A DNA stretch of 64,000 nt from an uncultured bacterium. GTDB lineage: Bacteria; Chloroflexota; UBA5177; JANWHV01. The notes below the pieces were generated by a model. It ran no database searches and was not told the DNA's origin. It saw only the letters and a list, made by a program, of their open reading frames with translations. The position numbers and the translations under genes are program-made. This document shows, one piece after another, positions 2,773-27,560 of this stretch; position 1 is the first letter of the stretch; the number at the start of each line of letters is the position of its first letter. The DNA lies in assembly GCA_963729625.1 (NCBI GenBank), contig CAVSOU010000007.1, positions 256,001-320,000 of the forward strand. Reading direction: 5' to 3'.

Positions 2773-3303
2773 GTGCCGACAGCGAAGAAGATAGCCGAAG
2801 TTGCTGACTTAACCAAACGGTTTCAAGGCGCGAATGCCGCGGTGCTTTTGCACTACCGCGAGCTGAAGGTTAGCGAGCTCTCCGACCTGCGGAGAAAGCT
2901 TCGACCCAGCAACATCGAAGTGAAGATCACGAAGAACACGCTGCTGCGGATAGCTACGGCCAATGCCGGCAAACCCGGCCTGGACAAGCTCTTCACCGGG
3001 CCAACTGCCATCGCCTTCATATACGGAAGCGAGCCGCAGGGCGCGAAGGCCGTGAGCGACGCCGTGAAAGCGCTTCGCAAGGAAAACGTGAAGGTCACGG
3101 GCGGCATTCTGGGTGACGTAGGACTTGACGCCGCGGGCGTCGAACGTCTCACCACGATGCGGCCACGCGAAGAACAGATCGCCACCTTGCTCGGGGCACT
3201 GCAGGCATCGGCCGGAAACCTTGCGGCGACACTCAACGGTGGCATCCAGAACCTGCTCTACGCACTTTCCGCATACGAGGACAAACTCAAGGAACAGCAA
3301 TAG
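2773..3303 (+). CDS. rplJ: 50S ribosomal protein L10
   Basis: MPTAKK start (GTG after AAGGAGG), [17 protein letters not shown]. Confidence 0.95.
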
Positions 3304-3328
3304 TCAGTCAAGAAAGGGGTTGCACCCA

Positions 3329-3733
3329 ATGGCCAAGTTGAGCACCGAGGAGTTGGTTGACGCCATCTCCGGCCTCACCCTCCTGGAAGTGTCAGACCTG
3401 GTAAAGGCTATCGAAGACAAGTTCGGCGTCAAAGCCGCCGCTCCCGTGGCTGCCTTTGGCATGGCGCCGGTGGCCGCCGCGCCCGTAGCCGCCGAACCCG
3501 AGGCAGAGCCGACCGAGTTCACCGCCAGCCTCACAGTCGTTGGCCCGAACAAGATCAACGTGATTAAGGCCGTGCGCGAGCTCGTGCCCAGCCTCGGCCT
3601 GAAAGAGGCCAAGGATCTCGTGGACAACGCCCCCAAGCCGATTAAGGAAAACGTGAGCAAGGACGAAGCTGAGGCGGTAAAGACGAAGCTAACTGATGTC
3701 GGCGCCACAGTCACAATCGTCGCCGTAGGCTAG
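3329..3733 (+). CDS. rplL: 50S ribosomal protein L7/L12
   Basis: [45 protein letters not shown]. Confidence 0.97.
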
Positions 3734-3768
3734 GCTCCGTTCCACATCGCCGAATGTCGATGCTACAC

Positions 3769-3813
3769 GAGAAGAGCGGTGAGGCGCCGACATGGCGCCT
3801 CACCGCTCTTCTC
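3769..3813. terminator. 20-bp perfect stem-loop after rplL
   Basis: gagaagagcggtgaggcgcc-gacat-ggcgcctcaccgctcttctc. Confidence 0.7.
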
Positions 3814-3871
3814 CTGTCCATCAGGTATGCTGAAGGGCGAACACGGGACACGATTGGGAGCACGAGACACT

Positions 3872-5005
3872 ATGTCGACTGAGAGCGCGACCCAGAGCAT
3901 AGCATCTCGCCTGGCGCGGCCGGCCGTCCTGGGTATCGAGCCTTACATCTGGGAGATGTCGAACCTGGAGGTCGCGGCGCGCTACGGACTCGACGCCGCG
4001 CACGTCGTACGTTTCGATACGAACACGTCGCCGCTGCCGCCGGTTTCGTTCTCGAGTGCAATTCGCGACATAGAAGCGGTACCGTCCGTCAACGAGTACT
4101 TCGATAGCAGCTATGCCACCCTGGTGCGCGCGATAGGCCGCTACGCGGGCCTTCCAGGCGAGAATCTCGTCGTCGGCGCCGGTGCGGACGAGATTCTGCA
4201 CATCATTTCCCGGACTTTCGTCGATCCGGCTGATCATGTTGTCATCCCTCAACCTACGTATGCGATGTACCGGGTTGGCGCCCAGGAGAGTGGCGCACGC
4301 ATAACATCCGTGCCGATGAACCCTGACCTCAGTCTCGACGTGGACGCGCTAATCGAGGCAAGCGCTGGCGCAAAGCTTGTCTTTCTCTGCAACCCGAATA
4401 ACCCGACGGGCCTTCGCCTACCGACCGCCGAGGTCGAGCGCTTGGCTCGCGAGGCAGACGGCATCGTCGTCGTCGACGAGGCATACGCCGAGTTCTCAGG
4501 CGAGTCAGTGCTTCCCGCGCTGCACCGGTATCCACGTTTGGTCGTGGTGCGCACGTTCTCCAAGGCGTTCTGCCTGGCCGGGGCGCGCGTCGGCTATGCC
4601 GCGTGCTCGGCCGAGATCGCTGGACTGCTGAATCGCGTACGACCACCGCAAAGCGTGAGCTACATGAGCGTCGTAGTCGCCGAGAAAGCAGTAGGTGACG
4701 TGGCCGCGATGCGCGCGAACGTAGACGGCGTGCTTCGAGAGCGGACGATGCTCGCTGCGGCGCTAGAGGACCTCGGCCTGGCCCCCTACCCTTCGCATGC
4801 GAATTTCGTGCTTGCACGAGCATCCTCGGCGCAAATCGTGGCGCGCATGCGAGCTGCCTGCCTGCAGCACGGGCTGGTGCTGCGCACATTCGCTCCCGGC
4901 TCTCCCCTTGAGAGCTGCGTGCGCATTACCGTCCGCGCGCGTCAGGACAACGAGCGCCTTCTGGAGACCCTGCAGACGGTGCTGACAGGCCCTGCCCGGG
5001 CGTGA
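3872..5005 (+). CDS. hisC: Histidinol-phosphate aminotransferase
   Basis: GAGADE, CNPNNPTG, VDEAY, RTFSKAFCLAGARVGY (PLP lysine). Confidence 0.9.
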   Translation: MSTESATQSIASRLARPAVLGIEPYIWEMSNLEVAARYGLDAAHVVRFDTNTSPLPPVSFSSAIRDIEAVPSVNEYFDSSYATLVRAIGRYAGLPGENLVVGAGADEILHIISRTFVDPADHVVIPQPTYAMYRVGAQESGARITSVPMNPDLSLDVDALIEASAGAKLVFLCNPNNPTGLRLPTAEVERLAREADGIVVVDEAYAEFSGESVLPALHRYPRLVVVRTFSKAFCLAGARVGYAACSAEIAGLLNRVRPPQSVSYMSVVVAEKAVGDVAAMRANVDGVLRERTMLAAALEDLGLAPYPSHANFVLARASSAQIVARMRAACLQHGLVLRTFAPGSPLESCVRITVRARQDNERLLETLQTVLTGPARA

Positions 5006-8999: not shown

Positions 9000-9165
9000 C
9001 GTCGCTCGCATGGTCAAGGTTCGCCCGCGGGGCATCCGTTGGGCGCCATGCCCATCGCTTTTTGTGTATGCTCCATGCTGGGTCCGCATGACTGCGCCGA
9101 GACGAGCGAGTTCCGCTTTCTACCTGTCGGCCGCAACAGATGACTCTCGCAGCGGAGATGAAGGC

Positions 9166-13921: not shown

Positions 13922-14209
13922 ATGTATGTCGTGATGAATCGGCTCACCTGCCCTGCGTCGTACGCCGAGAATCTGGAGCGCGCCTTTCGGCACGCCGGCG
14001 CCATGAAGGGCGTACCCGGTTTCGCGAGCTTCAGGTTCCTGCGACTGGATTCGGACGAGCCGGAGCACAAACACTACGTGGCAGTCACCGAATGGGAGAA
14101 CAAGCAGAGCTACGATTCGTGGCTCAAGAGCGAGGCTTTCGACCGCATGCACGCCGGCTCCGAGGCAAGCCCAGTCATGTCGGAGTTGGAATGCTTTACA
14201 GATCCTTAA
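13922..14209 (+). CDS. ABM-fold monooxygenase, IsdG/HmoA heme-degrading type
   Basis: NRLT...GF...TEWENKQSYDSWLKSEAFDRMH, retaining the Asn/Trp/His pattern of IsdG. Confidence 0.75.
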   Translation: MYVVMNRLTCPASYAENLERAFRHAGAMKGVPGFASFRFLRLDSDEPEHKHYVAVTEWENKQSYDSWLKSEAFDRMHAGSEASPVMSELECFTDP

Positions 14210-14430
14210 CCTGCTTAACGGGCCGTTAACGATATCCCGCTGCCGGAGTAACCAAGCCCCCCGTGGACAGAAGCTCGGTCGTGAGCTCGACCCTGGCGGG
14301 GTCTCTGTGGCCTGATGGCGTGCGGAATGCGCGGGATCTGTCTTTGAGAGGGAACACCGTGTCCGCAATGCTATGCTTGCTGAAGGCATTCACGCCAGTC
14401 GGTTCGATAGATTAGGAAGGCACGAGAAGC

Positions 14431-15597
14431 ATGAGAGCTCTTTGTCTTGGGGGCGCCGGTAGGATTTGCCGGGAGTCAGTGCTCGATCTGCTAGAGTTTT
14501 CCGCCTTTGAGCAGATCACGATCGCCGACACCAATGAGCGGGAAGGGCGATCGCTGGTCGCGCAATGCGGCGATTCCAGGGTTGATTTCCAGCCAATCAA
14601 CATATACGATGCCGAGGCGGCCATCGACCTGATGCGCGGCTACACGATCGTGCTGGATGGTACGACGATCGCGCTTAACGGGCGGTCCACTGCTCTCATC
14701 GCGGCCGCCGGGTGTCATGGCATCAACCTCAACGGCTTTGGCGAAGAAGATGCCGCCGATCCTGTGTTCAGGCGTTATGGTCGCACCTGCGTGCCCGGCT
14801 TCGGGATGACACCCGGTGTGACCCAGATGATGGCCATGTTCGCTGCCAACCAATGCGAATCAGTCAATACCGTGCGTGTCAGTCATGGCGCGTACCGGCC
14901 GATCGCCTTCTCGCGCTCGATTGCCGAGACCACTACCTACGAGTACGACCCGGCCCTCTCCGACCGCGTCGTGTTCGAGGCCGGTCGGTTTGTGCAGGTG
15001 CCGCCGTTTGCCCGGCCACGCGAGGTTCGGTTGCCTAAACCGTACGGCCTCACGACCCAATACATCATTCCGCATGCTGAAACGAAAACTCTGGCGAAGG
15101 CGCTGGCGCCAAAAGGGGTGCAGCTGATCGAAGTGCGCGGCACGTGGCCCGAGAGGAACATGCAGTTGGTACGCGCTCTCTTCGATTGGGGCTTCATGCG
15201 CAACGATCCGATCGCCATCGGCGGAGTGACAGTAGGTGTGTTGGACTGCATCGCGGAGTATTTGCTGCATTCGCGCGAAGGCACCGAGACCGAGCTCTAC
15301 GGCTATGCGTTGCACGTGGAGGTAACTGGGATCCGGAATGGACGTCGGTGGCAGCACACGCTGACCCACCACCACCCGCCGTCCGACGGGTCGGTGCTCG
15401 GGTGGGAGCAGCTGCGTGCATACACGCGCAACGTTGGTATTCCCATGTCCATCGGCGCGCAGATCATTGCCGAGGGTAAGGTCGGGCGCGCAGGGGTGAT
15501 CACGCCGGAAGAAGCCTTTGAGCCGGAGGCAATATTCGCGCAATTGGCGCGTCGCGGCATCCTGATACATGAGCAGATCGTCGAGGTTGCCGTCTGA
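14431..15597 (+). CDS. Saccharopine dehydrogenase-like NAD(P)-dependent oxidoreductase
   Basis: Rossmann LGGAGRI, GFGMTPGVT, IPHAETKTL, C-terminal GVITPEEAF. Confidence 0.8.
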   Translation: MRALCLGGAGRICRESVLDLLEFSAFEQITIADTNEREGRSLVAQCGDSRVDFQPINIYDAEAAIDLMRGYTIVLDGTTIALNGRSTALIAAAGCHGINLNGFGEEDAADPVFRRYGRTCVPGFGMTPGVTQMMAMFAANQCESVNTVRVSHGAYRPIAFSRSIAETTTYEYDPALSDRVVFEAGRFVQVPPFARPREVRLPKPYGLTTQYIIPHAETKTLAKALAPKGVQLIEVRGTWPERNMQLVRALFDWGFMRNDPIAIGGVTVGVLDCIAEYLLHSREGTETELYGYALHVEVTGIRNGRRWQHTLTHHHPPSDGSVLGWEQLRAYTRNVGIPMSIGAQIIAEGKVGRAGVITPEEAFEPEAIFAQLARRGILIHEQIVEVAV

Positions 15598-15867
15598 TCC
15601 TTCGTAACGCCATTCGGGATCTCCATCGAACCGCACGATTTTCGGGGCGGACGTCCTCGTCCGCCGTGGACGCGCCGGCCATCCACGCCATCGCCAAGAC
15701 GTGACCACCCCGCGGCTCCAGCGTGGGCACCCCTGCAGGATACGACGGGTCGGCGATCGCCGTGTCGGTGCAGTGCGCACTCGCAGCCAGCCGCGAATGG
15801 CGGAACTCGGTTGCACGACCTGACGGTTACACCGCCTGCGGGCATGGAAAGGCCGGCGCGATCATGC

Positions 15868-15917
15868 TTAACACACTCTTAACACAGATTTAACACCCCC
15901 TTAGGGACCGCTTAACA
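15868..15917 (+). promoter_or_regulatory. Pho-box-like array of five 11-bp-spaced units
   Basis: TTAACA at 15868, 15879, 15890 and 15912, TTAGGG at 15901; about 100 bp upstream of the ABC binding-protein gene. Confidence 0.7.
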
Positions 15918-16019
15918 GCGTCACACGATGATGAGATGGACTGCTAAGTCCCGGGCGAGCACGCATAAGCGCGTGCGACTGCGTCCGTCGAGTGTTTTTT
16001 CTGGAGGGTGTAAGGACAC

Positions 16020-17165
16020 ATGGGTGACCGTCAGTTGAACCGGCGTGAACTTCTCAAGCGGGGCGCGGCAGGTGGACTGGGCTTGGCAGGCATTGGCTTG
16101 CTGAGCGGCCATGGTGTTTCCAGCGTATTTGCTGCGGCGTCCGAAGCATCGACCGGGTTCGACCCGATGCTCGTGGCGGCGGCAAAGAAGGAAGGGCACA
16201 TCAACCTGATCACGCTGCCACGCACCTGGGCGGATTACGGCGAGATCATGGATACCTTCAAGGCGAAGTTCGGCATCAGCATTACGGATGACATCCCGGA
16301 AGGCAGCTCCTCGCAAGAAATCCAGGCGATCCAGAATTTCAAGGGCCAGAGCCGGGGTCCCGACGCCCTCGACGTTTCACTTGCCTGGGCCATCAACGGC
16401 GCGCAGTCAAATCTCCTCGCCCCGTACAAGGTTTCCACGTGGGATACCATCCCGAGCAATTTTAAGGAGCCGACCGGTCTCTATGTCGGCGATTACTACG
16501 GCGTCGTAGCCTTCCTGGCGGTCGACAGCCTCGTGAAGCAGGCACCGAAGGATTGGTCGGACCTGACCAGCCCCAAGCTCAAGGGCATGATCGCTCTGGG
16601 CGACGATCCGCGCAAGGCAGGCGAGGCATTCGCAGCGGTGTTCGCTGCTTCTCTGGCAAACGGCGGCTCGCTCGATAACATCGAGCCGGGCATCAATTTC
16701 TTCTCCAAGCTCAAGGCTTCGGGCAACTTCATCCTCTCGCAGGCCCTCAACGGGAACATTGCAAAAGGTGTGACACCCATAGCAATCCGTTGGGACTACC
16801 TGTTGCTTGCCGCTCGCGATGAATACAAGGCCAACCAGCCCATGACGGTCAACATCCCGAAGACCGGACGCTACGCGGGACCGTACTATCAGGCAATCAG
16901 CAAGTACGCGCCCAATCCGAACGCGGCTAAACTCTGGGAAGAATATCTTTACAGCGACGCCGGACAGCTGATGTGGCTGAAGGGCTATACGCATCCGGCT
17001 CGGTTTGCCGACCTCGCGAAACGGAACGTCATTCCGCAGACGTTGCTCGACAAGCTACCGCCCCCAGACGCGTACAAGAATCTGCATTTCGCCAACGCAA
17101 AGCAAATCGCTGCGGCGCAGGCAGTTCTTACCGCGCAGTGGGGTCCCAAGGTCGCCGGCAGCTAA
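16020..17165 (+). CDS. ABC transporter substrate-binding protein (PotD/AfuA/PhnS-like), Tat-exported
   Basis: LNRRELLK twin-arginine signal; AAAKKEG, APNPNAAKLWEEYLYS. Confidence 0.88.
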   Translation: MGDRQLNRRELLKRGAAGGLGLAGIGLLSGHGVSSVFAAASEASTGFDPMLVAAAKKEGHINLITLPRTWADYGEIMDTFKAKFGISITDDIPEGSSSQEIQAIQNFKGQSRGPDALDVSLAWAINGAQSNLLAPYKVSTWDTIPSNFKEPTGLYVGDYYGVVAFLAVDSLVKQAPKDWSDLTSPKLKGMIALGDDPRKAGEAFAAVFAASLANGGSLDNIEPGINFFSKLKASGNFILSQALNGNIAKGVTPIAIRWDYLLLAARDEYKANQPMTVNIPKTGRYAGPYYQAISKYAPNPNAAKLWEEYLYSDAGQLMWLKGYTHPARFADLAKRNVIPQTLLDKLPPPDAYKNLHFANAKQIAAAQAVLTAQWGPKVAGS

Positions 17166-17187
17166 ACAGCAGCTTCAGCATCGGTGA

Positions 17188-17224
17188 AGCCAGTGGCGGG
17201 CGAAGCATACGCCCGCCACTGGCT
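17188..17224 (+). other. Intercistronic 15-bp stem-loop after the binding-protein gene
   Basis: agccagtggcgggcg-aagcata-cgcccgccactggct; typical mRNA-stabilising position. Confidence 0.55.
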
Positions 17225-17245
17225 ATGCTTTCGAGTGGAGGTGCC

Positions 17246-18169
17246 ATGGCCCAGGCAGTCCGCCAAGAGCCGCAGGCAGCGAGCGGTGCCGCGAGCCAAA
17301 GCCGCGGAGGCGAATCTCTGGCGCGCCGAAAAGCCCGGACTGCCTGGCTCCCGGTTCTGCCGTTCTTCCTCTTCGTCGGCATCTTTCTTCTCCTGCCGTC
17401 CGTGTGGCTGATCATCGGCGCCTTTCAGTCCGACTCCGGAAGCCTCACGGGCAGCAATGTGCGGGCGCTCTTCGACAGCGATATTCTCGATGCGTACAAG
17501 ACGAGCCTCGAGGTGAGCTTTGTCAGCGCCCTGGTCGGCGGGGTGTTCGGATTCTTTGTCGCCTACGCCATGATCAAGGGTAATCCGCCGCGTTGGCTCC
17601 GCCCGGTGCTTTCGACGTTCGCGGGAGTGGCCGCCAATTTTGCCGGCATTCCGCTCGCATTTGCCTTCGCCGCCACGCTTGGGCTCAATGGCGTGCTCAC
17701 CGTCTTCCTCAAGAGCCACGGTATAGACATCTACCAGAACGGCTTCACCCTCTATTCATTCACCGGACTCATCGTCGTCTATACGTATTTCCAGATGCCC
17801 CTGATGCTGTTAGTGATCAGTCCTTCCATCGATGGGCTACGCCGTGAATGGAAGGAAGCCGCGACAAGTCTAGGCGCCGACGCCTCGCAGTACTGGCGCT
17901 GGGTTGGCCTCCCGGTACTGTGGCCGGCAATCCTGGGAGCGACGGTCCTGCTCTTCGGGAGCGCGTTTGCCGCCTATGCCACGGCCTACGCGCTGGTCGG
18001 ATCGCAGTTCAACCTTGTGCCTCTGCTCATCGGTCGCAATGTCGAGAGCGACTTCGTCGGCAATCCGCACCAAGCCAACGCGCTCGCCTTCGGCATGATC
18101 GCGATCATCACCGTGGTTATGCTGATCTACATTCTTCTGCAGCGCCGGTCGAGCAGGTGGATGCAATGA
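17246..18169 (+). CDS. ABC transporter permease
   Basis: Multiple TM helices, EAATSLGA EAA loop; ATG after GGAGG. Confidence 0.9.
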   Translation: MAQAVRQEPQAASGAASQSRGGESLARRKARTAWLPVLPFFLFVGIFLLLPSVWLIIGAFQSDSGSLTGSNVRALFDSDILDAYKTSLEVSFVSALVGGVFGFFVAYAMIKGNPPRWLRPVLSTFAGVAANFAGIPLAFAFAATLGLNGVLTVFLKSHGIDIYQNGFTLYSFTGLIVVYTYFQMPLMLLVISPSIDGLRREWKEAATSLGADASQYWRWVGLPVLWPAILGATVLLFGSAFAAYATAYALVGSQFNLVPLLIGRNVESDFVGNPHQANALAFGMIAIITVVMLIYILLQRRSSRWMQ

Positions 18170-19029
18170 AGAAGCGACTATTGGTCAACCCATGGAACCT
18201 CATCTGGCTCATTCTCGCCGCACTCTACTTCTTGGTTCCGCTGTACGGAACGGCAGAGTTCAGCCTGGAGACGACGCCGGGGCATCATGGATTCGACGCG
18301 TACCAGGCCGTGCTTCAGCAGTCGCAATTCTGGAGCATGTTTTCGCTGTCGCTGGAGATTGCCGTCGGCACGGTGGTCATCAGCCTCCTGCTGATGCTTC
18401 CAACGGTCTTCTGGGTACATCTCAGATTACCGCGCCTCCGGCCCGTCCTTGATTTCATCGCCGTGCTGCCCTTCGTGGTGCCGCCGGTCACGCTTGCGGT
18501 CGGCATCCTGCGACTTTTCGGCGCCGGCAGCCAGCAGACATCCGGGTTGGGAAATGTGTTCATCGGTCAGCCATCCTCCTGGCTGCTCTCGGGAACGATC
18601 TTTGGCTTGCCTTCGGGCATTCAGCTATTGGCGCTGGCGTATGTGATTCTCGCACTGCCGTTCACTTATCGCTCGCTCGACGCGGGCGTGCGGGCCATCG
18701 ATTTGCGCACGCTGTCCGAGGCAGCTCAAAGCCTCGGGGCAGGTTGGGTGAGGGTTCTGGTGTGGATCATCTTGCCGAACATGCGCTCGGCCATGCTTTC
18801 TGCCGCGTTCCTGACGCTCACGTTGGTGATGGGCGAGTATACCATGGCCAGTCTCATGCTCCTCAATACCTTTCCCATCTACATGTTCCAGATCGGAAAC
18901 GAACAGGCATACCAGGCCGCCGCCCTGGCCGTGATCAGCCTGCTATTGACATGGGTCGCGCTGCTTGGCGTGCTCGTGCTCGGCAGGGGCGCAAATCAGC
19001 GAGAAGTTCAGATCGGAGGCGCGCGCTAG
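18166..19029 (+). CDS. ABC transporter permease
   Basis: EAAQSLGA loop; ATGA overlap with the preceding gene. Confidence 0.9.
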   Translation: MKKRLLVNPWNLIWLILAALYFLVPLYGTAEFSLETTPGHHGFDAYQAVLQQSQFWSMFSLSLEIAVGTVVISLLLMLPTVFWVHLRLPRLRPVLDFIAVLPFVVPPVTLAVGILRLFGAGSQQTSGLGNVFIGQPSSWLLSGTIFGLPSGIQLLALAYVILALPFTYRSLDAGVRAIDLRTLSEAAQSLGAGWVRVLVWIILPNMRSAMLSAAFLTLTLVMGEYTMASLMLLNTFPIYMFQIGNEQAYQAAALAVISLLLTWVALLGVLVLGRGANQREVQIGGAR

Positions 19030-19031
19030 AT

Positions 19032-20192
19032 ATGGCTGTACTAGAGCTTCAGTCATTGCACAAGAGGTTCGGAGACGTGGTCGCCCTTAACAACGTGGAT
19101 TTGGCGATTGAGTCCGGCGAGTTCGTCGCTTTCCTCGGCCCCAGCGGGTGCGGAAAAACTACCGCCCTGCGAATCGTGGCCGGCTTTGAGCATCCGGATT
19201 CGGGCCGCGTCGTCGTGCAGGGAAAGGACATCACGGCCGTGCCGGCAAGCCGGCGCGACATGGGAATGGTGTTTCAAGCATACAGCCTATTCCCGAATCT
19301 TTCCGCGTTGGACAATGTCGCCTTCGGACTCCGAGTGCGCGGCGTGCATCACGCGCAGCGCACGAAGCGGGCGTCTGACTTGCTCGACCTGGTAGGCCTG
19401 GGCAGCGCGGCCAGACGGTTCCCTCATCAGCTCTCCGGTGGCCAGCAGCAGCGGGTTGCCCTGGCGCGCGCATTGGCAATCGAGCCGCGTGTACTGCTAC
19501 TCGACGAGCCCCTATCCGCGCTCGACGCAAAGGTGCGCGTCCAGTTGCGAGAAGAGATACGCCGCATCCAGATGAAACTTGGCATCACGGCCCTCTTTGT
19601 GACGCACGACCAGGAGGAGGCACTCTCGATCTCCGATCGGGTAGTCATTCTCTCACAGGGTCAGATCGAGCAGGTCGGCACGCCGGCCGAAATCTACGGC
19701 AATCCGGCGACAGTGTTCGTTGCGGAGTTCGTCGGCACAATGAACCGCATCACCGGAACCGTGGCGGCGGACTCGACTGGCTTCATCGACACCGAGGCGG
19801 GGCTGCTTCGCGCGGAGGCCGCCAGAGGCCGGACCGCTTCCGAGCGAGTCGTGCTACTGGTGCGGCCGGAGACGATCGAGATTGCTCCGCTGAATGGAGC
19901 GGGCGCCCCTGCAGGAGGTCTCGCCGGGCGTGTCATATCACACACGTTCCTGGGCGCAGTCACCCGCTTGGCAATCGCCAGCTCTGTCGGCGACATCAAG
20001 GTCGACGTCGGCAGCGCGCAGGCATTCTCGCTCGCGACTGGCACGCCTGTTGCGCTGTCCTGGGATCCCGCGGCGCCGCGACTGATCGGCCTGGCAGCGG
20101 CGGAAGGCGGCATCACACATGCCCACCTTGACGGAGAAGATGGGCTGGACAACACGCCAACCGCCGCGTCCGCCCATCAGCGGGCTGGATAG
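19032..20192 (+). CDS. ABC transporter ATP-binding protein (PotA-like, TOBE domain)
   Basis: GPSGCGKTT, LSGGQQQR, LLLDEP, VTHDQEEA. Confidence 0.93.
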   Translation: MAVLELQSLHKRFGDVVALNNVDLAIESGEFVAFLGPSGCGKTTALRIVAGFEHPDSGRVVVQGKDITAVPASRRDMGMVFQAYSLFPNLSALDNVAFGLRVRGVHHAQRTKRASDLLDLVGLGSAARRFPHQLSGGQQQRVALARALAIEPRVLLLDEPLSALDAKVRVQLREEIRRIQMKLGITALFVTHDQEEALSISDRVVILSQGQIEQVGTPAEIYGNPATVFVAEFVGTMNRITGTVAADSTGFIDTEAGLLRAEAARGRTASERVVLLVRPETIEIAPLNGAGAPAGGLAGRVISHTFLGAVTRLAIASSVGDIKVDVGSAQAFSLATGTPVALSWDPAAPRLIGLAAAEGGITHAHLDGEDGLDNTPTAASAHQRAG

Positions 20193-20290
20193 CCAGCTGA
20201 ATCAAACCTGACCTTGCCGATCAAGCGGCGGCGGCGTTCGGCGCTCATCAGCGGTCGCGCCTGGGCCTTTCGACCTGACTCATGGTCGAG

Positions 20291-21743
20291 CTAGTCCCAC
20301 GGCAGCGTGTACAACTTGGTGAAGGTCATGGCGCGCATGGCTTCGATCACGCCCTCTTTCACGCCCAGTCCGCTATCCTTCGTCCCGCCGAAGGGCGTGA
20401 GCTCGGTCCTGTAACCCGGCACTTCGCGAATGTTCACGGAGCCGCAGCGAAGCTCGCGTATGCAACGATTGATCGCTCGCAGGTCGTTGGTCACAACGCC
20501 ACAGGAAAGGCCGAAAGCCGTCGAGTTGGCAGTGCCTATCGCCTCGTCAAGGTCGCGCACCCGGATGACGGGCGCGTACGGCCCAAACGTCTCGCTGGCC
20601 ACGAGCTCGCTTGACGGCGACACCCGATCGAGTACCGCGGGTGTGATCTGCGCTCCCCGTCGCTCACCTCCACACAGCAGCACGGCGCCATCGTCGCAGG
20701 CGGCACGCATGCGGCGCTCGAAGCTCTCGGCGTCGCGCTCGCTGATCACTGTACCCACGTCGGTTGCCGGATCCATCGGATCGCCTGCAACGAGCCTGCT
20801 CGCCGAGTCAGCCAGCTTCCGCGCAAACTGGTCCGCAATGGCGTTTAGTCACGATGATTCGCTTCACCGCCGTGCAGCGTTGACCCGAGTTCTTGAACGC
20901 GCCGTAGGCGGCCAGGCGAACCGCCTCGTCGATGTCCGCATCGTCCAGCACGATCAGTGGATCGTTGCCTCCTAACTCAAGTATGGCCCGCTTGTAGCCC
21001 ATCTCAGAAGCGATGCGCTTTCCGACCTGCGTGCTTCCCGTAAAGCTGATCAGATCTACATCCGGATGCCGCCAAAGCAAGGGGCCGATCTCTTCGGTAT
21101 CGGCGGGGGCGAGCGTGGCGATCGTAACCATGGCGTCAGGCAATCCAGCCATCCGCATCATCTGGGCAAGCGCGAGTGCGGCCAGCGGCGTGCGCCACGA
21201 CGGCTTCAGCACCATCGTGTTATTCGTGGCAATGGACGGCGCCACTTTGTGCGCAACCTGGTTCAGCGGGTGATTGAACGGCGTGATCGCCGTGACAAGG
21301 CGCAATGGCTCGCGCAGGGTGTACGCACGACGGCGCTTGCCGTTCGCCGACGTGTCGCAGGCGAAGACCTGACCATCGTCCCGAAGAGCTTCCATCCCAG
21401 CGAAACGAAACACATCCTGGGCGCGCCGCAGCTCATACGTCGTGTCCTTCATGCAGAGCCCCGACTCCCACGTAATGAGCTTTGCAAAAGCCGTTTCCTC
21501 AGCCTGGAGCTTGTCGGCGATGCGGAGGAGAATCTGCGAGCGCTCGTATCGCGTCAGATCGATGGTAGTCTCCCGCGCGTGCTCGAGGGCAGCCACTACG
21601 TCACTTTGAGTCAGCCGGGGTGCCGACCCGACGACTTCGCCGGTGTATGGATAGCGGACCTCCACATCGCCGCTACCCCAGGTCTCTTTCCCGGATACAT
21701 AGGCGGGCAGACGATATGGCGGGGCGGATTCGATGATATTCAT
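20291..21743 (-). CDS. phnY: Phosphonoacetaldehyde dehydrogenase (frameshift at about 20844-20846)
   Basis: ITPFNHPLNQVAHK, FTGS, LELGGND, KNSGQRCTA, ETFGP, PFGGTKDSG; adjacent to phnA; removing one A restores ...VTNAIADQF...GDPMDP. Confidence 0.85.
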
Positions 21744-22975
21744 TGGTCAACCACTCCGTTCAACAGAAGATCGTAGATGTCGGAGTTGCTCACGCCCTGC
21801 GCGTGCCGGGCAGCGTACTTGGGTGCAAGTGCATGGCTGACGATGACCGGGATAATCTGCTCGTGCCGGCCACCGTGCGAACGCAAGCCGCCGGCAATCG
21901 CCGCCAGGTCGTGTTTGGACGCCGACTTGCCCAGCGCGGTTCTCGCATCCGCCGCGACAGAGAGGTCGCCAATGCGGTCGATTGGGTGCTTGTATATCAC
22001 TGCCGCTTCCTCGCGACTGAACACCTCTTCCACTCCTTCGAGGGCGGCAAGGACGTCGCGCGCGCGATCGCGTTGTGCGGCGGGCACATGCACCCATGCA
22101 AACGAGCCAAGAGCGCCGTGATGTACCACGTACGGGTCGGTGATCGGAAGCACGACACGGTAGTCCCGCAATCCCGCGCCGTCGAACACGTCCTCGAGGT
22201 AATGCACCCGGGGCGAGCCGTCCGGGAGCTGTTTGGCGTTCATGCCGTGGTCCGCGACGATCCCGACGACATATCCGAGGTCCAGGTACTCGCCCAGCAG
22301 CCCGTCAAAGCGCTGGTAAAACGCGTCGGCCATGGTGCCGCCGGGAGCTTGCTTGTGCTGGACGAAGTCCGTCAGCGAGACGTACATGAGATCGATCGGA
22401 CCGACCTTTCGCGACACGGCCAGCCCGATCTCCATTGCATAGTGGCTCATATCCCACTCATATGGTCCCGGGTTTCTGCGGCCAACGAGCCCCACGACGT
22501 CGTCGACGCCGAAGGCTGGAAGGGCGTGCTCATGCGCCTTCTCGGCACTCATCGCCGGGACGCCGCCGGCTGCAAGCAGTCTGCGAAGTTTATCCTTGGC
22601 AGTCACACATAGTACCCGAACTCCTGCTCGATGCATCTCGGCGTGAATTGATGGCGCGCGCAGAAACTTCGGATCGGTGAGTTGCACTTCCTCGCCGGAA
22701 GGGTCCAAATAGTGATTGCCCGCGATGCCGTGGACGCTGGGAGGAACGCCCGTAACGATGGAGAGGTTGTTTGGATTCGTGAAGGATGGCATCTGGCTCA
22801 GGCCGAGATGATAGGCGCCACCGCCCGTCACCATTGCCTTTAGGCGCGGCATCAGGCCGCGGGACAGGCCATCGTCGATGTACTCCGGCGAACAGCCATC
22901 AATCGTGATGGCAACAGTGGGGCGCGTCGGAATGCGATAGTCCCGCGCATTGACTACGATACTCTCAGTCGGCAT
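21740..22975 (-). CDS. phnA: Phosphonoacetate hydrolase
   Basis: IDGC, MPSFTNPNNLSIVTG, TDFVQHK, ADHGMN, ITDPYVVHHGALG, LRSHGG. Confidence 0.93.
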   Translation of the reverse strand: MPTESIVVNARDYRIPTRPTVAITIDGCSPEYIDDGLSRGLMPRLKAMVTGGGAYHLGLSQMPSFTNPNNLSIVTGVPPSVHGIAGNHYLDPSGEEVQLTDPKFLRAPSIHAEMHRAGVRVLCVTAKDKLRRLLAAGGVPAMSAEKAHEHALPAFGVDDVVGLVGRRNPGPYEWDMSHYAMEIGLAVSRKVGPIDLMYVSLTDFVQHKQAPGGTMADAFYQRFDGLLGEYLDLGYVVGIVADHGMNAKQLPDGSPRVHYLEDVFDGAGLRDYRVVLPITDPYVVHHGALGSFAWVHVPAAQRDRARDVLAALEGVEEVFSREEAAVIYKHPIDRIGDLSVAADARTALGKSASKHDLAAIAGGLRSHGGRHEQIIPVIVSHALAPKYAARHAQGVSNSDIYDLLLNGVVDQ

Positions 22976-22985
22976 TTCAACAACC

Positions 22986-24572
22986 TCAAGCGCTAGCTGC
23001 CGCGAAACTGCCCGTCAGGGCGCGCTCCAGCGCCGCCACAAAACCGTGGAGTGCTTCGATCTTCAGCGCGCCGAGTGCACAGACCCGGAAACTGGTCTTT
23101 GCAGCCTCGCCCAGCCCGCCATAGATGATGTAGCCCTCTTTCTTCACCGCGTCATGCAGATAGTCGTACGTGACGCCCTGTGGCAACGGCAGTGAGCGCA
23201 CGCTGCGTGAACGATGCTCGCGCGCGACGCGCGGCTCAAGCCCGAGCCTGCTGAACTCGCGATCGAGGTACTCGACCCGCGCCTGGTAGTAGGCCTGTCG
23301 CGCACCGAGGCCCTCGTCAAGCAATTCGTCCAGCGCTGCCTCGAGCCCGTAGATCGCCGGAATGGCGGGCGTGTACGGGACCGTCCGCTTTGCCTGCGCC
23401 CGGAGATACGCGCCGAGGTCGAAGTAGAGCGAGCGAGGAGGCACGGCATTGATCCTCTCCTGTCCCAGGGGCGACACGAGCAGGAACGCCGCGCCCGGCA
23501 AGCCGTGAAGACACTTGTTCGAGGTGCAGGCTAGGAAGTCGATGCCCGAGTCGTCAAGCTGCAGGTCTTCGGCTCCAAACGAGCTTATGGCGTCCACCAG
23601 CGTGCGAACGCCACGCTTCCGCGCTTCCGCCGCAATCGCAGCCACCGGATTCATCAGGCCCGTCGTGGTCTCGTGATGGATAACGGCAACCGCGTCGATC
23701 CCATCGTCCGCGTCCAGAGCGGCGGCCACCCCGCCGGCATCGATAGGCTCGAGGTCTGGCGCGTCGACGATCACCACTTCAATGCCGGAACGCCGCGCTA
23801 TCGTCGCGATGCGCTCGCCGTAGATGCCATTACGACAGACGAGTAGTTTGCGTCCGGGCCTGGTGGAGCCGCACGTCATCGCCTCCATGGCCGACGTGCC
23901 ACTCCCGGCGATCATGACCATCGCCCAGTCATCACCCACGCCGGCAAGCGCCAGAAGCTTACCGCGCACGCGCTCCAGCATGGTCGAATACTCGGGCTCG
24001 CGATGGCAGAGGTCGGGACCGCCCACCGCTCGGTGCACACGGTCACTGACCACGGCCGGTCCTGGATTGAGGAGCACCCGTTGCCTGTGGGCCCTGGTGC
24101 TGGAGAATCGCTCGGCATCGAGCCCGCCGAATGTCGAAACCTCGACGATGAAGTCGGGCTGAGACTCCAGCAGCGACCTGCGTGCATCCCGCCCCGGGAC
24201 GGCAAGGGCAATAACCGCCCCCACACCGGCGCGATGGCCGGCTGCCATCGCGGCCGAGCTGCTCCCAACTACGCCCACACGCCGGACGTCGTCGATGTGC
24301 GCTGCCTGGAGGGCTTCGAACACGCCAAACGGCGAAGGAGCCGGCGCCCCCTGCACTATCAGGTCGGCGAGAGCGCGATCCGTTCTGTTGATCACGTCGT
24401 CCTTTGTGGCAACGAGTGCGATCCGGCCTCCGTCGGCGCGAATCGCCAAGACAGACGGCTCGAGAGCTTCCGCGTCTGCACGCGGCAGATCACCGGCAAA
24501 GAACACCCAGAGCAGGATTGACCGCTCTGTCGCCCATTCGTGGGCCGTGACAGCTGAAACGGCGAAAGGCAT
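22986..24572 (-). CDS. phnW: 2-aminoethylphosphonate aminotransferase with N-terminal degenerate HAD domain
   Basis: LLNPGP, DLCHRE, GSGT, NGIYGER, HHETTTG, DAISSFG, SNKCLHGLPG; about 160 extra aa at the N-terminus. Confidence 0.88.
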   Translation of the reverse strand: MPFAVSAVTAHEWATERSILLWVFFAGDLPRADAEALEPSVLAIRADGGRIALVATKDDVINRTDRALADLIVQGAPAPSPFGVFEALQAAHIDDVRRVGVVGSSSAAMAAGHRAGVGAVIALAVPGRDARRSLLESQPDFIVEVSTFGGLDAERFSSTRAHRQRVLLNPGPAVVSDRVHRAVGGPDLCHREPEYSTMLERVRGKLLALAGVGDDWAMVMIAGSGTSAMEAMTCGSTRPGRKLLVCRNGIYGERIATIARRSGIEVVIVDAPDLEPIDAGGVAAALDADDGIDAVAVIHHETTTGLMNPVAAIAAEARKRGVRTLVDAISSFGAEDLQLDDSGIDFLACTSNKCLHGLPGAAFLLVSPLGQERINAVPPRSLYFDLGAYLRAQAKRTVPYTPAIPAIYGLEAALDELLDEGLGARQAYYQARVEYLDREFSRLGLEPRVAREHRSRSVRSLPLPQGVTYDYLHDAVKKEGYIIYGGLGEAAKTSFRVCALGALKIEALHGFVAALERALTGSFAAASA

Positions 24573-24586
24573 AGAATGGTCCCCTT

Positions 24587-25372
24587 TCAGGCCATGTGGC
24601 GTGATACCCCGGGTTTCGACGCGCTGTTCTCGACCGCGAAGTCGACCTGGTCCGCCAGGTACCGATCTTCAGACCATTCCAGAGCGACGCCGGTCTGGGA
24701 GAATGCGTGACGGCGAATACGCAGAAGGGGGGTGTGTGCCGGCACGCCGAGGAGTTCCGCGTCGATCATCGACGCCTCCATGGCGCCGATGACGTGCCGC
24801 GCCGACGCGAAAACGACTCCTTGCCGCGCAAGCTCAGCGTAGATTGACGCGCTGTCGAGATCGACACCGATGAGCAATGCGCCGACACCGGACGGAAACG
24901 TCGCGCGCTCGACCATGAGCGGCCGACCGTCCGCTAGGCGCAGGCGCAGCAGGCGGTACACGGCGCTTCCAGGCGCGACCGCAAATGCGGCTGCCTCCTC
25001 CTCGTCGGCTTCACCGGTGGCATAGTCGACAACTCGGGCCGACGGATGCCCACCCAGTGCCTCGATCCAGGCCGAGAAGCTGATTAGCTCGCTCAGCGGC
25101 TGCGTCATGTGCGGGCCCCGCACCGAAAGCTGCCTGCCGCGCGAACCGGAGATGGTCCCATCCGCGCGCAGGGCCGACAAGGCCTGGCGAACGGTGCCGC
25201 GGGCAACGCCGTACCGGCCGACCAGGTCGTGCTCGGACGGCAAGAGCTGTCCGGGAAGCAGGTCGCCCGTCGCGATCTGCTGCCGTATGTCCGCCGCGAT
25301 CCGGCGATGGAGCGGCCGAGGCAAGGGTCCCGCAACCTGTGGTCCTGCGCTGACTGGATCAGACTTGCGCAC
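24587..25372 (-). CDS. GntR/HutC family regulator with UTRA domain (PhnF-like)
   Basis: LPSEHDL...GVARGTVRQAL wHTH plus UTRA domain; GTG start after GGAGAGG; heads the phnWAY operon. Confidence 0.88.
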   Translation of the reverse strand: MRKSDPVSAGPQVAGPLPRPLHRRIAADIRQQIATGDLLPGQLLPSEHDLVGRYGVARGTVRQALSALRADGTISGSRGRQLSVRGPHMTQPLSELISFSAWIEALGGHPSARVVDYATGEADEEEAAAFAVAPGSAVYRLLRLRLADGRPLMVERATFPSGVGALLIGVDLDSASIYAELARQGVVFASARHVIGAMEASMIDAELLGVPAHTPLLRIRRHAFSQTGVALEWSEDRYLADQVDFAVENSASKPGVSRHMA

Positions 25373-25391
25373 GAGGTTCCCCTCTCCAGCA

Positions 25392-25437
25392 ACTTGTCTA
25401 TACAAGTCATTGTGCAGCCACGTACATTGGTTGTCAA
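25392..25437 (-). promoter_or_regulatory. Promoter and HutC-type operator of the GntR-phnWAY operon
   Basis: Minus strand TTGACA-17-CACAAT, followed immediately by near-palindrome ACTTGTATAGACAAGT (GT-N-TA-N-AC core). Confidence 0.7.
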
Positions 25438-25516
25438 GCAGAATGCACCAACGCCAGGGTGATTGCGCGCGTGCATGAACCGGCGTAGACTAGCCGCACA
25501 ACTGCGTGCAGCCCAA

Positions 25517-27100
25517 GTGGTGAAGATGAACGCCGAAGAGATATTCGCCGGCCTGGCCGACAATGTGTTGCACGTCGTCGCCACCCTTGTGCCCGGCTGC
25601 TCGGCTGCCGCCGGCATCATGGTCGCAAGTACTCGGGCCATGCAGCGGGTCGGTGCGGTCGGCGCGCATGCGAGTCTGCTCCTGGAAGGAGCATCCCTCC
25701 TAAGCGCCTATCGTGCCATGAGCGAGCACGCTATGCTGACCACGTCCTTCGACACGGCCGAGACACCCTCCGGATGCCTCGCGTCGGTGCCGATCTGGGG
25801 CAGAAACCGCATTCCACTGGGCGCCCTTCAGGTGCTGGTCGATAGTGGCAGTTTCGATGCTCGCCTGCGAGGCACACTTGAGGCGCTCACTGAGCTGATA
25901 TCCGATGCCGTGTATCACCACAAACTCAATCTGGACCTCCAGCACAGCCTCAATCAACTCTTCCTCGTCTACGAAGTCGGCCGGCAGTTCAATCTGGTCA
26001 GCAGCATGGACGACGTGTTGCACGAGGTTCGGGTCCGACTTTCCGGCACGATGAACTTCCACCATTGCTGCATCATGCTGCTCAACGCCGAGCAGTATCT
26101 CGTGCCGGAAGCCGGCATTGGCATCGATCCGCAGTGGATGGCGGAAGCCAGACCAAAGCTCGAGCGCAGCGTCGCGGCGCTCGTTCTCGAGAGTGGGGTA
26201 GCCGAGCAGGTGACCGACCCCATCGAGCTGGCCGGACTGGATGCGCCGACGCTGGACACCGGGTTGCCGCCCGAAAGCGTTTTGTGCGCGCCCATGCGGG
26301 CAAGAATGGGGGTGATCGGCGTCCTCGAGCTGTACACGTCCGAACCGTACGCTTTCAGCCGAGACGAGAAGTTCCTGCTGTCGGTGCTCGCATCCGAGCT
26401 GGCTACCGCACTGGAAAACTCGCAACTTTACGCCAGCCTCCGGGAAAAGGAAGGCAGACTGACGGTACTGGCGCACAAGCTCATTCACTCGCAGGAGCAG
26501 GAGCGAAAGCGAATTGCGCGCGATATGCACGACGGCCTCGCGCAGATGCTTGTCAGCGCCTACCAGTATCTGCAGGCCCATGCCTACAGTGTTCCTTCCG
26601 GCAAGAGCCGCGAGTCGCTTGACGAAGGACTTTCCACGCTCGCGGAGTGCATCGACGAGTCTCGAAACGTGATCTTCGATCTCAGGCCTTCCACGCTCGA
26701 TGATTTCGGGCTCGTGCATGCGCTACGCCAGTTCCTGCAGCGTACGGAAGTCGAGGCAGGTTGGAACGCACAGCTGGATATCAAGGGTGACATTGGGCCA
26801 ATGCCCCCAGCAACGGAGACGGCGATCTACCGACTCGTCAAGGAAGCGGTGAGCAACGCCCGAAAGCACGCCCAGTCGCCGAGAATTCAGGTCCGGCTGG
26901 CGTCGCGCGCAGGAAACCAGGTCATTCTCGTGCGCGACTGGGGCAAAGGCTTCGACCCGAAGGCGGCACAGTCGCTCGGCAGCGGTCAGTTCGGGATCAT
27001 GGGCATGCGCGAGCGAGTATCATTGTTAAGCGGTTCATTCCGCCTGAGAAGCAGGACTGGCGCAGGCACCGTCGTTCGAATCGTTCTGCCGCTGGAGTAA
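25517..27100 (+). CDS. GAF-domain sensor histidine kinase (HisKA_3 type)
   Basis: ERKRIARDMHDGLAQ H-box, DLRPSTLDDFGL, EAVSNARKHA, DWGKGF, GIMGMRER; start uncertain. Confidence 0.88.
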   Translation: MVKMNAEEIFAGLADNVLHVVATLVPGCSAAAGIMVASTRAMQRVGAVGAHASLLLEGASLLSAYRAMSEHAMLTTSFDTAETPSGCLASVPIWGRNRIPLGALQVLVDSGSFDARLRGTLEALTELISDAVYHHKLNLDLQHSLNQLFLVYEVGRQFNLVSSMDDVLHEVRVRLSGTMNFHHCCIMLLNAEQYLVPEAGIGIDPQWMAEARPKLERSVAALVLESGVAEQVTDPIELAGLDAPTLDTGLPPESVLCAPMRARMGVIGVLELYTSEPYAFSRDEKFLLSVLASELATALENSQLYASLREKEGRLTVLAHKLIHSQEQERKRIARDMHDGLAQMLVSAYQYLQAHAYSVPSGKSRESLDEGLSTLAECIDESRNVIFDLRPSTLDDFGLVHALRQFLQRTEVEAGWNAQLDIKGDIGPMPPATETAIYRLVKEAVSNARKHAQSPRIQVRLASRAGNQVILVRDWGKGFDPKAAQSLGSGQFGIMGMRERVSLLSGSFRLRSRTGAGTVVRIVLPLE

Positions 27101-27125: not shown

Positions 27126-27560
27126 ATGCAGCCGCCACAGCCCGATGCGCCATTGATTCTTGTGACCGAGGACAATCCCCTCCACATGAAGATATTTGCG
27201 CTCAACTTGACCTTCAAAGGATATCGCGTGCTCGAGGCTGAGAATGGGCTGAAGGGCCTTGAGCTCGCAAAGAAAGAAGTACCGGACTTGATGCTGGTCG
27301 ATCTTACCCTTCCCAAGATGGAGGGATGGGAGATGGTGCGCAGGATAAAGGCGGACCCGCAGACAGCCCACGTGCCGGTTATCGTCGTGTCCGCGCGGCG
27401 GCCGCAGGACGAAGAGCACGAAGCCCGCGAGCTAAAGATCGACCACTACGTCTCCAAGCCATTCAATCCGGAACATCTGATGGACCTGGTCGATCAGACG
27501 GTGCGGAAATCTCGCGCCAATCGAGCGGACCAGCACAAACACGAGCCCGCGGAGTCCTGA
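27126..27560 (+). CDS. Single-domain response regulator (CheY/DivK-like)
   Basis: LVTEDN, DLMLVDLTLPKMEG, SKPF; no output domain. Confidence 0.88.
   Translation: MQPPQPDAPLILVTEDNPLHMKIFALNLTFKGYRVLEAENGLKGLELAKKEVPDLMLVDLTLPKMEGWEMVRRIKADPQTAHVPVIVVSARRPQDEEHEARELKIDHYVSKPFNPEHLMDLVDQTVRKSRANRADQHKHEPAES

Follow-up and report, generated by a model that had tools for sequence, protein, structure and literature searches.

A candidate 2-aminoethylphosphonate locus made of three units

Among natural phosphonates, 2-aminoethylphosphonate (AEP) is the commonest; ecosystems regain phosphate and ammonium when it is degraded. In a 64,000-nt stretch of DNA from an uncultured Chloroflexota bacterium of soil or sediment (hereafter the window; contig positions C7:256001-320000 of genome G000, whose assembly comprises 5.41 Mb in 21 contigs and is 87% complete), the segment between 14.2 and 25.4 kb carries two convergent gene units. 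One consists of a saccharopine-dehydrogenase-like (SDH-like) oxidoreductase gene and the genes of an ATP-binding cassette (ABC) importer with a twin-arginine (Tat) substrate-binding protein (SBP); the other is a gntR-phnW-phnA-phnY operon. We read this segment, with a probability of roughly 0.55, as an AEP-utilization locus built of three units that differ in history. A prediction made beforehand from the letters of the window (hereafter the original prediction) had described the two convergent units, and all the parts that it named were present where it had placed them. The features of the segment are as follows (window positions).

14206..14230, + strand: three TTAAC repeats with spacings of 9 and 11 nt, about 200 nt 5' of the SDH-like gene
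14431..15597, + strand: SDH-like NAD(P) oxidoreductase of 388 aa, with the Pfam domains Sacchrp_dh_NADP and Sacchrp_dh_C
15868..15916, + strand: five units phased at 11 nt (four cTTAAC and a degenerate CTTAGG), with a GATGAT -10-like hexamer behind them
16020..17165, + strand: SBP of family SBP_bac_6 with the N-terminal twin-arginine motif NRRELLKRG
17246..18169, + strand: ABC permease 1, 307 aa (alternative ATG start at 17225)
18166..19029, + strand: ABC permease 2, 287 aa
19032..20192, + strand: ABC ATPase with a TOBE_2 tail
20291..21743, - strand: phnY, phosphonoacetaldehyde dehydrogenase, split in the assembly
21740..22975, - strand: phnA, phosphonoacetate hydrolase
22986..24572, - strand: phnW, AEP-pyruvate transaminase of 528 aa with a 160-aa N-terminal extension
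24587..25372, - strand: regulator of the GntR/HutC subfamily, GTG start
25393..25406, no strand assigned: operator CTTGTATAGACAAG, palindromic at 12 of 14 positions

The first unit would be the genus-conserved, self-regulated gntR-phnW-phnA-phnY operon. The route from AEP to acetate and phosphate through PhnW, PhnY and PhnA is an established pathway, in which PhnW would here convert AEP and pyruvate to phosphonoacetaldehyde, PhnY would oxidize phosphonoacetaldehyde to phosphonoacetate, and PhnA would split the latter into acetate and phosphate. The second unit would be the ABC importer, also conserved in the genus, whose promoter has five TTAAC repeats phased at 11 bp that seem to replace the -35 box; a PhoP/PhoB-type regulator probably reads them as Pho boxes when phosphate is scarce. 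Together with this promoter the importer would have shifted by about 105 kb in this species alone, so as to stand now tail to tail with phnY. The third unit would be the horizontally acquired SDH-like NAD(P) enzyme gene with TTAAC repeats of its own, a member of a family embedded in the AEP operons of other phyla; the enzyme would most likely oxidize the C-N bond of an AEP-related amine to yield phosphonoacetaldehyde. The SDH-like gene and the SBP gene are separated by 422 nt.

Position of the importer and of the phn operon in related genomes

Orthologues of the SBP were sought in 41 related genomes, and strong ones were found in 13. At 12 loci from 11 of these (some on contigs only 7-9 kb long), the ABC genes were kept and stood beside SDH-like, PhnW, PhnA, PhnY or GntR genes in none. 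A PhnA gene turned up in G001, G003 and G004, whereas the 36 genomes searched outside the genus had none; the phn operon, including the N-terminal extension of PhnW, is conserved in the sister species G001 and partly in G003 and G004. In G001 an ABM-like gene stands next to phnY with nothing between them, and phnA, phnW (with the extension), gntR and a histidine kinase gene come after. The window and G001 are homologous up to the end of the ABM gene (~14200) and again from the phnY stop codon (~20291) onward; the repeats at 14206-14230 are located at the left edge of the stretch that G001 lacks.

The ABC operon of G001 is located on the same contig, ~90 kb from phnWAY, and stands alone between unrelated genes. 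Synteny ties its flanks to G000 C7:161162-177293, a stretch without the operon; at L013 5999-10268 the operon begins precisely with the TTAAC repeats and corresponds to positions 15867-20134 of the window. Combined, these alignments place the ABC operon of G000 and its promoter apparently ~105 kb from their position in G001, with the SDH-like gene as an addition; either arrangement could be ancestral. The flank of the phn operon differs again in G003, with 4-hydroxyphenylacetate genes and an HNH gene. The adjacency of the importer and phnWAY is specific to this species.

TTAAC repeats as candidate Pho boxes

The pentamer TTAAC was found 1006 times in the 5.41-Mb genome of G000, compared to ~3900 occurrences expected from base composition. 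Only three clusters of at least three TTAAC within 36 nt exist genome-wide and two of them are the repeats at 14206-14230 and 15868-15916; when TTAAC was placed at random, any such cluster arose in 11 of 2000 simulations. Both the repeats and the operator CTTGTATAGACAAG exceed what chance would give. In the SBP promoter the units start at 15868, 15879, 15890, 15901 (the degenerate one) and 15912, and this arrangement is kept 5' of the SBP orthologues of G001, G002, G003 and G004. The pattern TTAAC-N6-TTAAC-N5-7-TTAAC has five sites in G001, compared to none for the reversed control pattern. One site is at a true pstS (TIGR00975, 330 bits for a cut-off of 205) and another at a metallophosphoesterase gene divergent from the gene of a PhnD-type SBP (PF12974, 160 bits); the remaining sites are at an SBP_bac_1 gene, at the ABC operon orthologous to the window importer and at one conserved unknown locus. 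G002 has two sites with three TTAAC, at a paralogue of the SBP gene and at the same unknown locus as in G001. Because the sites of the sister species precede pstS, the phosphoesterase/PhnD pair and other SBP genes, the TTAAC repeats probably serve the genus as its Pho boxes. They resemble what we take to be the repeats bound by PhoP of Bacillus subtilis (TTAACA) and by cyanobacterial SphR (CTTAAC).

The box-bearing pstS of G001 has as its counterpart in G000 only a 42% identical paralogue and a 100-aa remnant, and the box-bearing phosphoesterase of G001 had no match in G000; a search of the 87%-complete assembly for PhoU (PF01895) was negative as well. The remnant of ~100 aa (C7:185017-185316, - strand) is 40% identical to the C-terminus of the boxed G001 PstS and adjoins a two-box TTAAC site at C7:185393. 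G000 may have lost its boxed pstS copy, or may carry it in broken form. Two-box TTAAC sites of G000 as such were uninformative on Pho control, leading to SBP_bac_1, GH26 and DUF4032 genes.

The third cluster of G000 (C10:657351-657377, - strand; ~7352-7378 of L115) lies between an open reading frame (ORF) resembling RepO/DnaA_N and murJ. Behind it come a TACAGT -10-like hexamer and a sequence conserved in three species (…CCCCACGGATG.CCTC.GG.AG.AC.GG…; also in L146 of G001 and L140 of G002). No ORF with a Pfam match was found downstream of the cluster and the conserved sequence had no Rfam match; a small RNA or leader under Pho control is one possibility. The SBP leader (15930-16019, + strand) shows a GC hairpin with compensatory differences in G001 and, ahead of the ribosome-binding site, a U-run. 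In folding energy the leader did no better than shuffled sequences (z of -1.09).

The importer and its binding protein

The original prediction had suspected that the binding protein might belong to an uncharacterized clade. By its sequence the SBP is neither an AepX nor a PhnS: it scored far below the cut-offs of the models TIGR03261 (phnS2/AepX; 18.9 bits for 392.75), TIGR03227 (PhnS; 40.5 for 395) and PRK15046 (44.6 for 310), it shares 26% identity over 84 aa with AepX of Sinorhizobium meliloti pSymB, and it stands apart from three AepX sequences by a long branch of the tree (FastTree, SH-like support only). The best NCBIfam model of the ATPase was PhnT2 (TIGR03265) with 410.9 bits, under the cut-off of 457.7, and the next was PotA with 359 bits. 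The closest solved relative of the SBP, both in sequence (E of 1e-43, 31% identity) and in fold (TM-score of 0.89), is PDB entry 5T1P, a putative periplasmic solute-binding protein from Campylobacter jejuni. The folds ranking next were 8x1a (a glucose-6-phosphate binder), 4r6y (STM0429), AfuA and P5PA (a pyridoxal-phosphate binder); STM0429 is, we presume, the PhnS of Salmonella. Searching the ESM Atlas with the SBP returned only generic "ABC/iron SBP" cluster names, and in the literature searched no ligand or function was found for 5T1P/Cj0727.

In species-representative genomes the SBP has at least 517 relatives, and the loci of the best 80 of them were used to follow the wider distribution of the importer. 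At one of them, L027 from a Gaiellales metagenome-assembled genome, genes for an SBP, two permeases, an ATPase, an FAD oxidoreductase (TIGR03364), PhnA and PhnY follow each other on one strand. The window and L027 fall into one well-supported clade of 37 rows of the tree without being sisters in it, and the two phn links therefore appear to be independent. The importer family probably carries small aminoalkyl phosph(on)ates, that is AEP or compounds of the phosphoethanolamine or phosphocholine type. AEP is a plausible ligand of the window importer, and we consider the tie of the importer to AEP weak to moderate.

The gntR-phnW-phnA-phnY operon

The identity of the three enzymes as PhnW, PhnA and PhnY, which the original prediction had proposed, is supported. 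PhnA matched TIGR02335 over its full length with 423.9 bits (cut-off 407.55). The two pieces of PhnY matched TIGR03250 with 374 and 221 bits at model positions 9-290 and 313-472 (the cut-off of 636 applies to the whole protein). PhnW carries the SNK lysine motif, its class-V aminotransferase domain spans residues 162-520, and its top PDB matches were solved AEP transaminases with E of 1e-41 to 1e-49. On the whole the phnWAY reading of the operon appears sound.

Residues 1-160 of PhnW gave no Pfam match and a weak match to the PhnX-like model TIGR03351 (23 bits). This extension was found in 10 proteins of a collection of 5.8 billion clusters, all of them PhnW-like and 502-535 aa long. An AlphaFold model computed with the 10 members as alignment (pLDDT of 92.3, pTM of 0.88) gave 111 Foldseek matches at E of 0.001 or less, and the top ranks listed were nearly all HAD-family hydrolases; PhnX chains occupied ranks 2, 3, 6, 10, 12 and 31 with TMq of 0.54-0.59, entries of K53 and D12 mutants included. 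As modeled, the extension is a HAD core fold, which it has in common with PhnX, itself of the HAD superfamily. In PhnX the cap domain bears the Schiff-base lysine, whereas in the PhnW domain only ~25 residues separate strand 1 from strand 2, leaving it without a cap. The nucleophile position, set by HAD topology rather than by residue-level superposition, also lacks Asp: strand 21-25 is followed by A-G-D, and all 10 members have A, S, G, R or T at position 26. Because both the cap and the nucleophile Asp are missing, the domain is probably not catalytic and looks like the dead remnant of a PhnX-like protein; a reading of it as an active phosphonatase was rejected on the same two grounds. The HAD fusion named in the original prediction was thus recovered as a fold by AlphaFold and Foldseek, and the wider substrate range that had been attached to it is unlikely.

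The regulator combines GntR (PF00392, 55.5 bits) and UTRA (PF07702, 113 bits) domains and stays under the cut-offs of the equivalog models HutC, PhnF and PhnR. Operator CTTGTATAGACAAG is located just downstream of a promoter (TTGACA, 17 nt, CACAAT) and before the GTG start of gntR. It resembles GT-N-TA-N-AC, which we take to be the core recognized by the HutC family. No other match with two mismatches or fewer exists in the window, and the operator is identical in G001 although its flanks diverge, in keeping with the HutC-type operator that had been predicted before gntR. A HutC-type repressor would occupy this operator, at the transcription start, and leave it once its UTRA domain has bound a metabolite of the pathway.

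An SDH-like family found in AEP operons of other phyla

The SDH-like protein scored above the cut-offs of PF03435 (38.4 bits) and PF16653 (59.3 bits), and its best PDB matches were weak (saccharopine and carboxyspermidine dehydrogenases, E of 1e-6 to 3e-8). No orthologue was found in 400 other sampled Chloroflexota genomes, nor in the congeners. More than 1100 relatives exist; the best 120 are 65-77% identical to it and include many from Brevibacillus and Paenibacillus, and identity within the family across phyla is 61-77%. Judged from this distribution, the gene is a horizontal acquisition.

The contexts of the family were analyzed at 17 metagenome loci and in 3 genomes. Firstly, among 401 genomes of another phylum (sampled around G401) three carried the gene, and in all three it lay in an aepX-aepV-aepW-phnX-phnW-SDH-deoR operon. 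In one such operon (L147) the SDH-like gene starts at 9005, before the end of phnW at 9008, and PhnX matches the solved Bacillus cereus enzyme with 578 bits over 264 aa (near-identical). Secondly, 11 of the 17 metagenome loci had phosphonate genes (PhnW, PhnA, PhnY, PhnX-like, PbfA, AepX or a GlpT-type transporter of the major facilitator superfamily, MFS) beside the SDH-like gene; cluster representatives of these neighbors were scanned against the family libraries, and other members were assigned by BLAST clustering. L129 and L134 carry genes for an NPP-type esterase, PbfA (670 bits, cut-off 525), a GlpT/PgtP-type MFS protein, the SDH-like protein, PhnW (493 bits), PhnA (470 bits), PhnY (626 bits) and an alcohol dehydrogenase labeled "HpnZ-proposed". 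L131 has the same order from PbfA to PhnW, past which the contig ends. In L122 and L123 the gene is accompanied by those of an MFS protein, a PhnX-like protein, a PhnW-like protein and a HAD protein; L122/L123 and L129/L131/L134 look like near-copies among themselves. The SDH-like gene is followed by phnA in L130 and accompanied by a true AepX gene in L136 (481 bits, cut-off 393), and L126, L127, L128 and L138 have similar phosphonate neighbors. L132 and L137 have no phosphonate neighbor, and four other contigs with the SDH-like gene are 2.7 kb long or less. The tie of the oxidoreductase to phosphonate catabolism, which the original prediction had based on adjacency and motifs, is supported by this comparative evidence far beyond adjacency.

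Saccharopine, carboxyspermidine and lysine 6-dehydrogenases form or oxidize C-N bonds in NAD(P)-linked reactions. By analogy, this chemistry suggests that the SDH-like enzyme yields phosphonoacetaldehyde from AEP or substituted AEP. Among the papers that could be searched, subscription papers being outside the search, none was found that ties the family to phosphonates or gives it a function.

Two features of the metagenome loci may be added. In L129 and L134 a gene of the NPP/type-I phosphodiesterase family (3201-4151, + strand) and one for a large Ig/LamG surface protein stand before pbfA; their products may release AEP from larger conjugates. The closest relatives of the SDH-like gene (L124 and L125, 75-76% identity) are each preceded at ~100 nt by two GCGTTAACC motifs 22 nt apart, and the donor lineage of the gene may therefore use the same type of box.

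Weighing of the AEP reading against alternatives

A number of observations weigh against an AEP locus of three units, most of them on the side of the importer. The ABC operon does not adjoin phn genes in any of the 11 related genomes examined, and in the wider sample a link to phnA/phnY was seen at 1 of 80 loci (L027) and was missing from 79. The original prediction had named missing linkage between importer and phnWAY in relatives as one of two counts against it, and such linkage is largely absent, the two lying ~90 kb apart even in G001. The SBP reached 19-45 bits with three curated models of AEP-binding proteins whose cut-offs are 310-395, and in the fold search PotD/polyamine and iron binders scored only slightly behind binders of phospho-ligands. 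As to the Pho boxes of the original prediction, phasing, conservation in the genus and the phosphate genes of G001 speak for them; the only PF12849 pstS of G000 itself (C10:766828-767694) has no TTAAC repeats upstream, and the third cluster of G000 adjoins no phosphate gene. On the side of the enzymes, the best models of PhnW were all PhnW or AepZ with scores under their cut-offs (297 for 361 and 232 for 296), phnY is broken as assembled, and no reaction has been demonstrated for the SDH-like family.

It is quite possible, and the strongest competing explanation, that the importer is a scavenger of phosphate esters (phosphoethanolamine, phosphocholine, glycerophosphodiesters) under starvation for inorganic phosphate (Pi), that it has no role in AEP uptake and that it came to lie beside phnWAY by an accident of rearrangement. 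Besides the lack of phn neighbors at the 79 wider loci and in the 11 related genomes, and the solitary operon of the sister species, this explanation draws on the genes that recur around the importer. At the 80 loci these encode aldehyde dehydrogenase (12 loci), GS-like (8), Fe-ADH (8), DAO plus GCV_T (8), RpiR (8) and MttB (7) proteins, choline/ethanolamine kinase (5), glycerol-3-phosphate dehydrogenase (4) and GDPD (3), together with a DMGDH-like protein, and as read from such neighbors they point to the use of ethanolamine, choline and glycerophosphodiesters. Furthermore, a metallophosphoesterase of the TIGR03767 family (547 aa; 417 bits for a cut-off of 331, scanned on L018) stands directly behind the ATPase gene in L018, L019, L020, L040 and L093, which are class-level relatives and two other lineages, and hints at a phosphoester substrate there. 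An accident is nevertheless harder to reconcile with two independent phnA/phnY links (window and L027) within a single clade of 37 rows, or with a move that landed the operon exactly between the ABM gene and phnY in the company of a gene family tied to AEP operons. In addition, no other recognizable AEP importer was found in the 87%-complete genome of G000; AepX, PhnD-type proteins and the GlpT-type MFS proteins of the metagenome clusters all had no counterpart there.

A decaying locus, in which phnY is a true pseudogene, the pathway ends at phosphonoacetaldehyde and the cluster is a relic, appears improbable. In the assembled sequence phnY falls into two ORFs (21743-20808 and 20776-20291), a split that the original prediction had not noticed: compared to the in-frame genes of G001 and G003 it has one extra base in an AAA run (20844-20847), which splits PhnY eight codons past the catalytic-Cys motif GQRCTA. 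Contigs from four public sequencing runs were aligned with the gene; the best run contains only a fraction of 0.25 of the sampled words, and no other run exceeds 0.10. A near-identical 280-nt short-read contig (run X1, one mismatch, depth of 2.8) is without the extra base at 20847, which restores the frame. Because of this contig the extra base is probably a homopolymer error of the assembly, or else a variant; both the correction and the intact reading of phnY depend on this single contig of low depth, which counts among the points against the AEP reading. The base sits in a homopolymer, a typical site of long-read errors, and every other gene of both units is intact, neither of which fits decay.

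Finally, that the SDH-like gene encodes an ordinary lysine or polyamine enzyme (of the lysine 6-dehydrogenase or carboxyspermidine dehydrogenase type) placed here by chance can be largely set aside: some relatives are named lysine 6-dehydrogenase by a source and the weak best PDB matches are of these kinds, but the gene lies inside AEP operons in 3 of 3 genomes, has phosphonate neighbors at 11 of 17 metagenome loci, is tightly packed in such operons, as in its overlap with phnW in L147, and has no lysine or polyamine genes among the scanned neighbors.

Comparison with known phosphonate systems

One of the closest known arrangements is that of S. meliloti pSymB, where phnW-phnA-phnY stand beside aepXVW. 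The same three enzymes are encoded in both cases, with an ABC importer adjoining, and PhnA of the window is 46% identical to the pSymB enzyme. The regulator is of the LysR family in pSymB and a HutC-type GntR protein in the window. The window further differs by the dead-looking HAD domain on PhnW and by its importer, which has an SBP of another family, is convergent with the phn operon and has a Pho-type promoter of its own. AepXVW importers have a single fused permease of ~550-585 aa in place of two separate ones, and the window ATPase stays under the cut-off of PhnT2 even though this is its best model. Its SBP is set apart by model scores from those of AepXVW and PhnSTUV, a comparison limited to these two systems. 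The SBPs of the AepXVW, AepSTU and PhnSTUV importers are SBP_bac_6 proteins, as in the window, and Pho control is reported for AepX of Pseudomonas putida BIRD-1 (PMC8316502).

The fold families of the phosphonate breakdown factors PbfA-D and PbfF differ from those of the SDH-like protein (PF03435/PF16653): PbfA has a class-III aminotransferase fold, PbfB-D belong to PF01266 and PbfF belongs to PF02826 (PMC10590968, PMC12366243). Among the papers that could be searched, no activity of the SDH-like family has been reported. A factor named PbfE was not found among the papers listed, nor does the name occur in PMC12366243; such an enzyme may exist in literature outside the search.

A further-reaching proposal, which we put forward tentatively and regard as rather doubtful in its full extent, is that the 5T1P-like ABC system represents a fourth, undescribed family of aminoalkyl-phosph(on)ate importers serving AEP uptake under Pi starvation; that the SDH-like enzyme is an NAD(P)-dependent dehydrogenase, independent of oxygen and of an amino acceptor, that converts AEP or N-substituted or otherwise modified AEP to phosphonoacetaldehyde; and that the cluster was caught in the middle of its assembly by relocation and horizontal transfer. 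Being tightly conserved and located inside AEP operons, the SDH-like family is one whose function could be assigned by an NAD(P)H assay on aminophosphonates. The SBP clade with the solved structure 5T1P stands here under apparent Pho-type control beside phnWAY; its candidate ligands are phosphonates, phospholipid head groups or both. Comparison with the sister species would provide a clean, dated example of how a catabolic operon already in place recruits a transporter and an accessory enzyme.

On the left the segment is bordered by the ABM-fold gene (13922-14209, + strand), which marks the edge of the inserted part; its 95-aa product matches the models of heme-degrading HmuQ/IsdG weakly (53 bits for a cut-off of 130) and is 68% identical to its G001 counterpart. 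Divergent from gntR, a GAF-HisKA_3 histidine kinase gene (25463-27100) and a response-regulator receiver gene (27126-27560), both on the + strand, follow on the other side; by its domains the pair is not of the PhoR type, and the kinase is 79% identical to one at the same position in G001.

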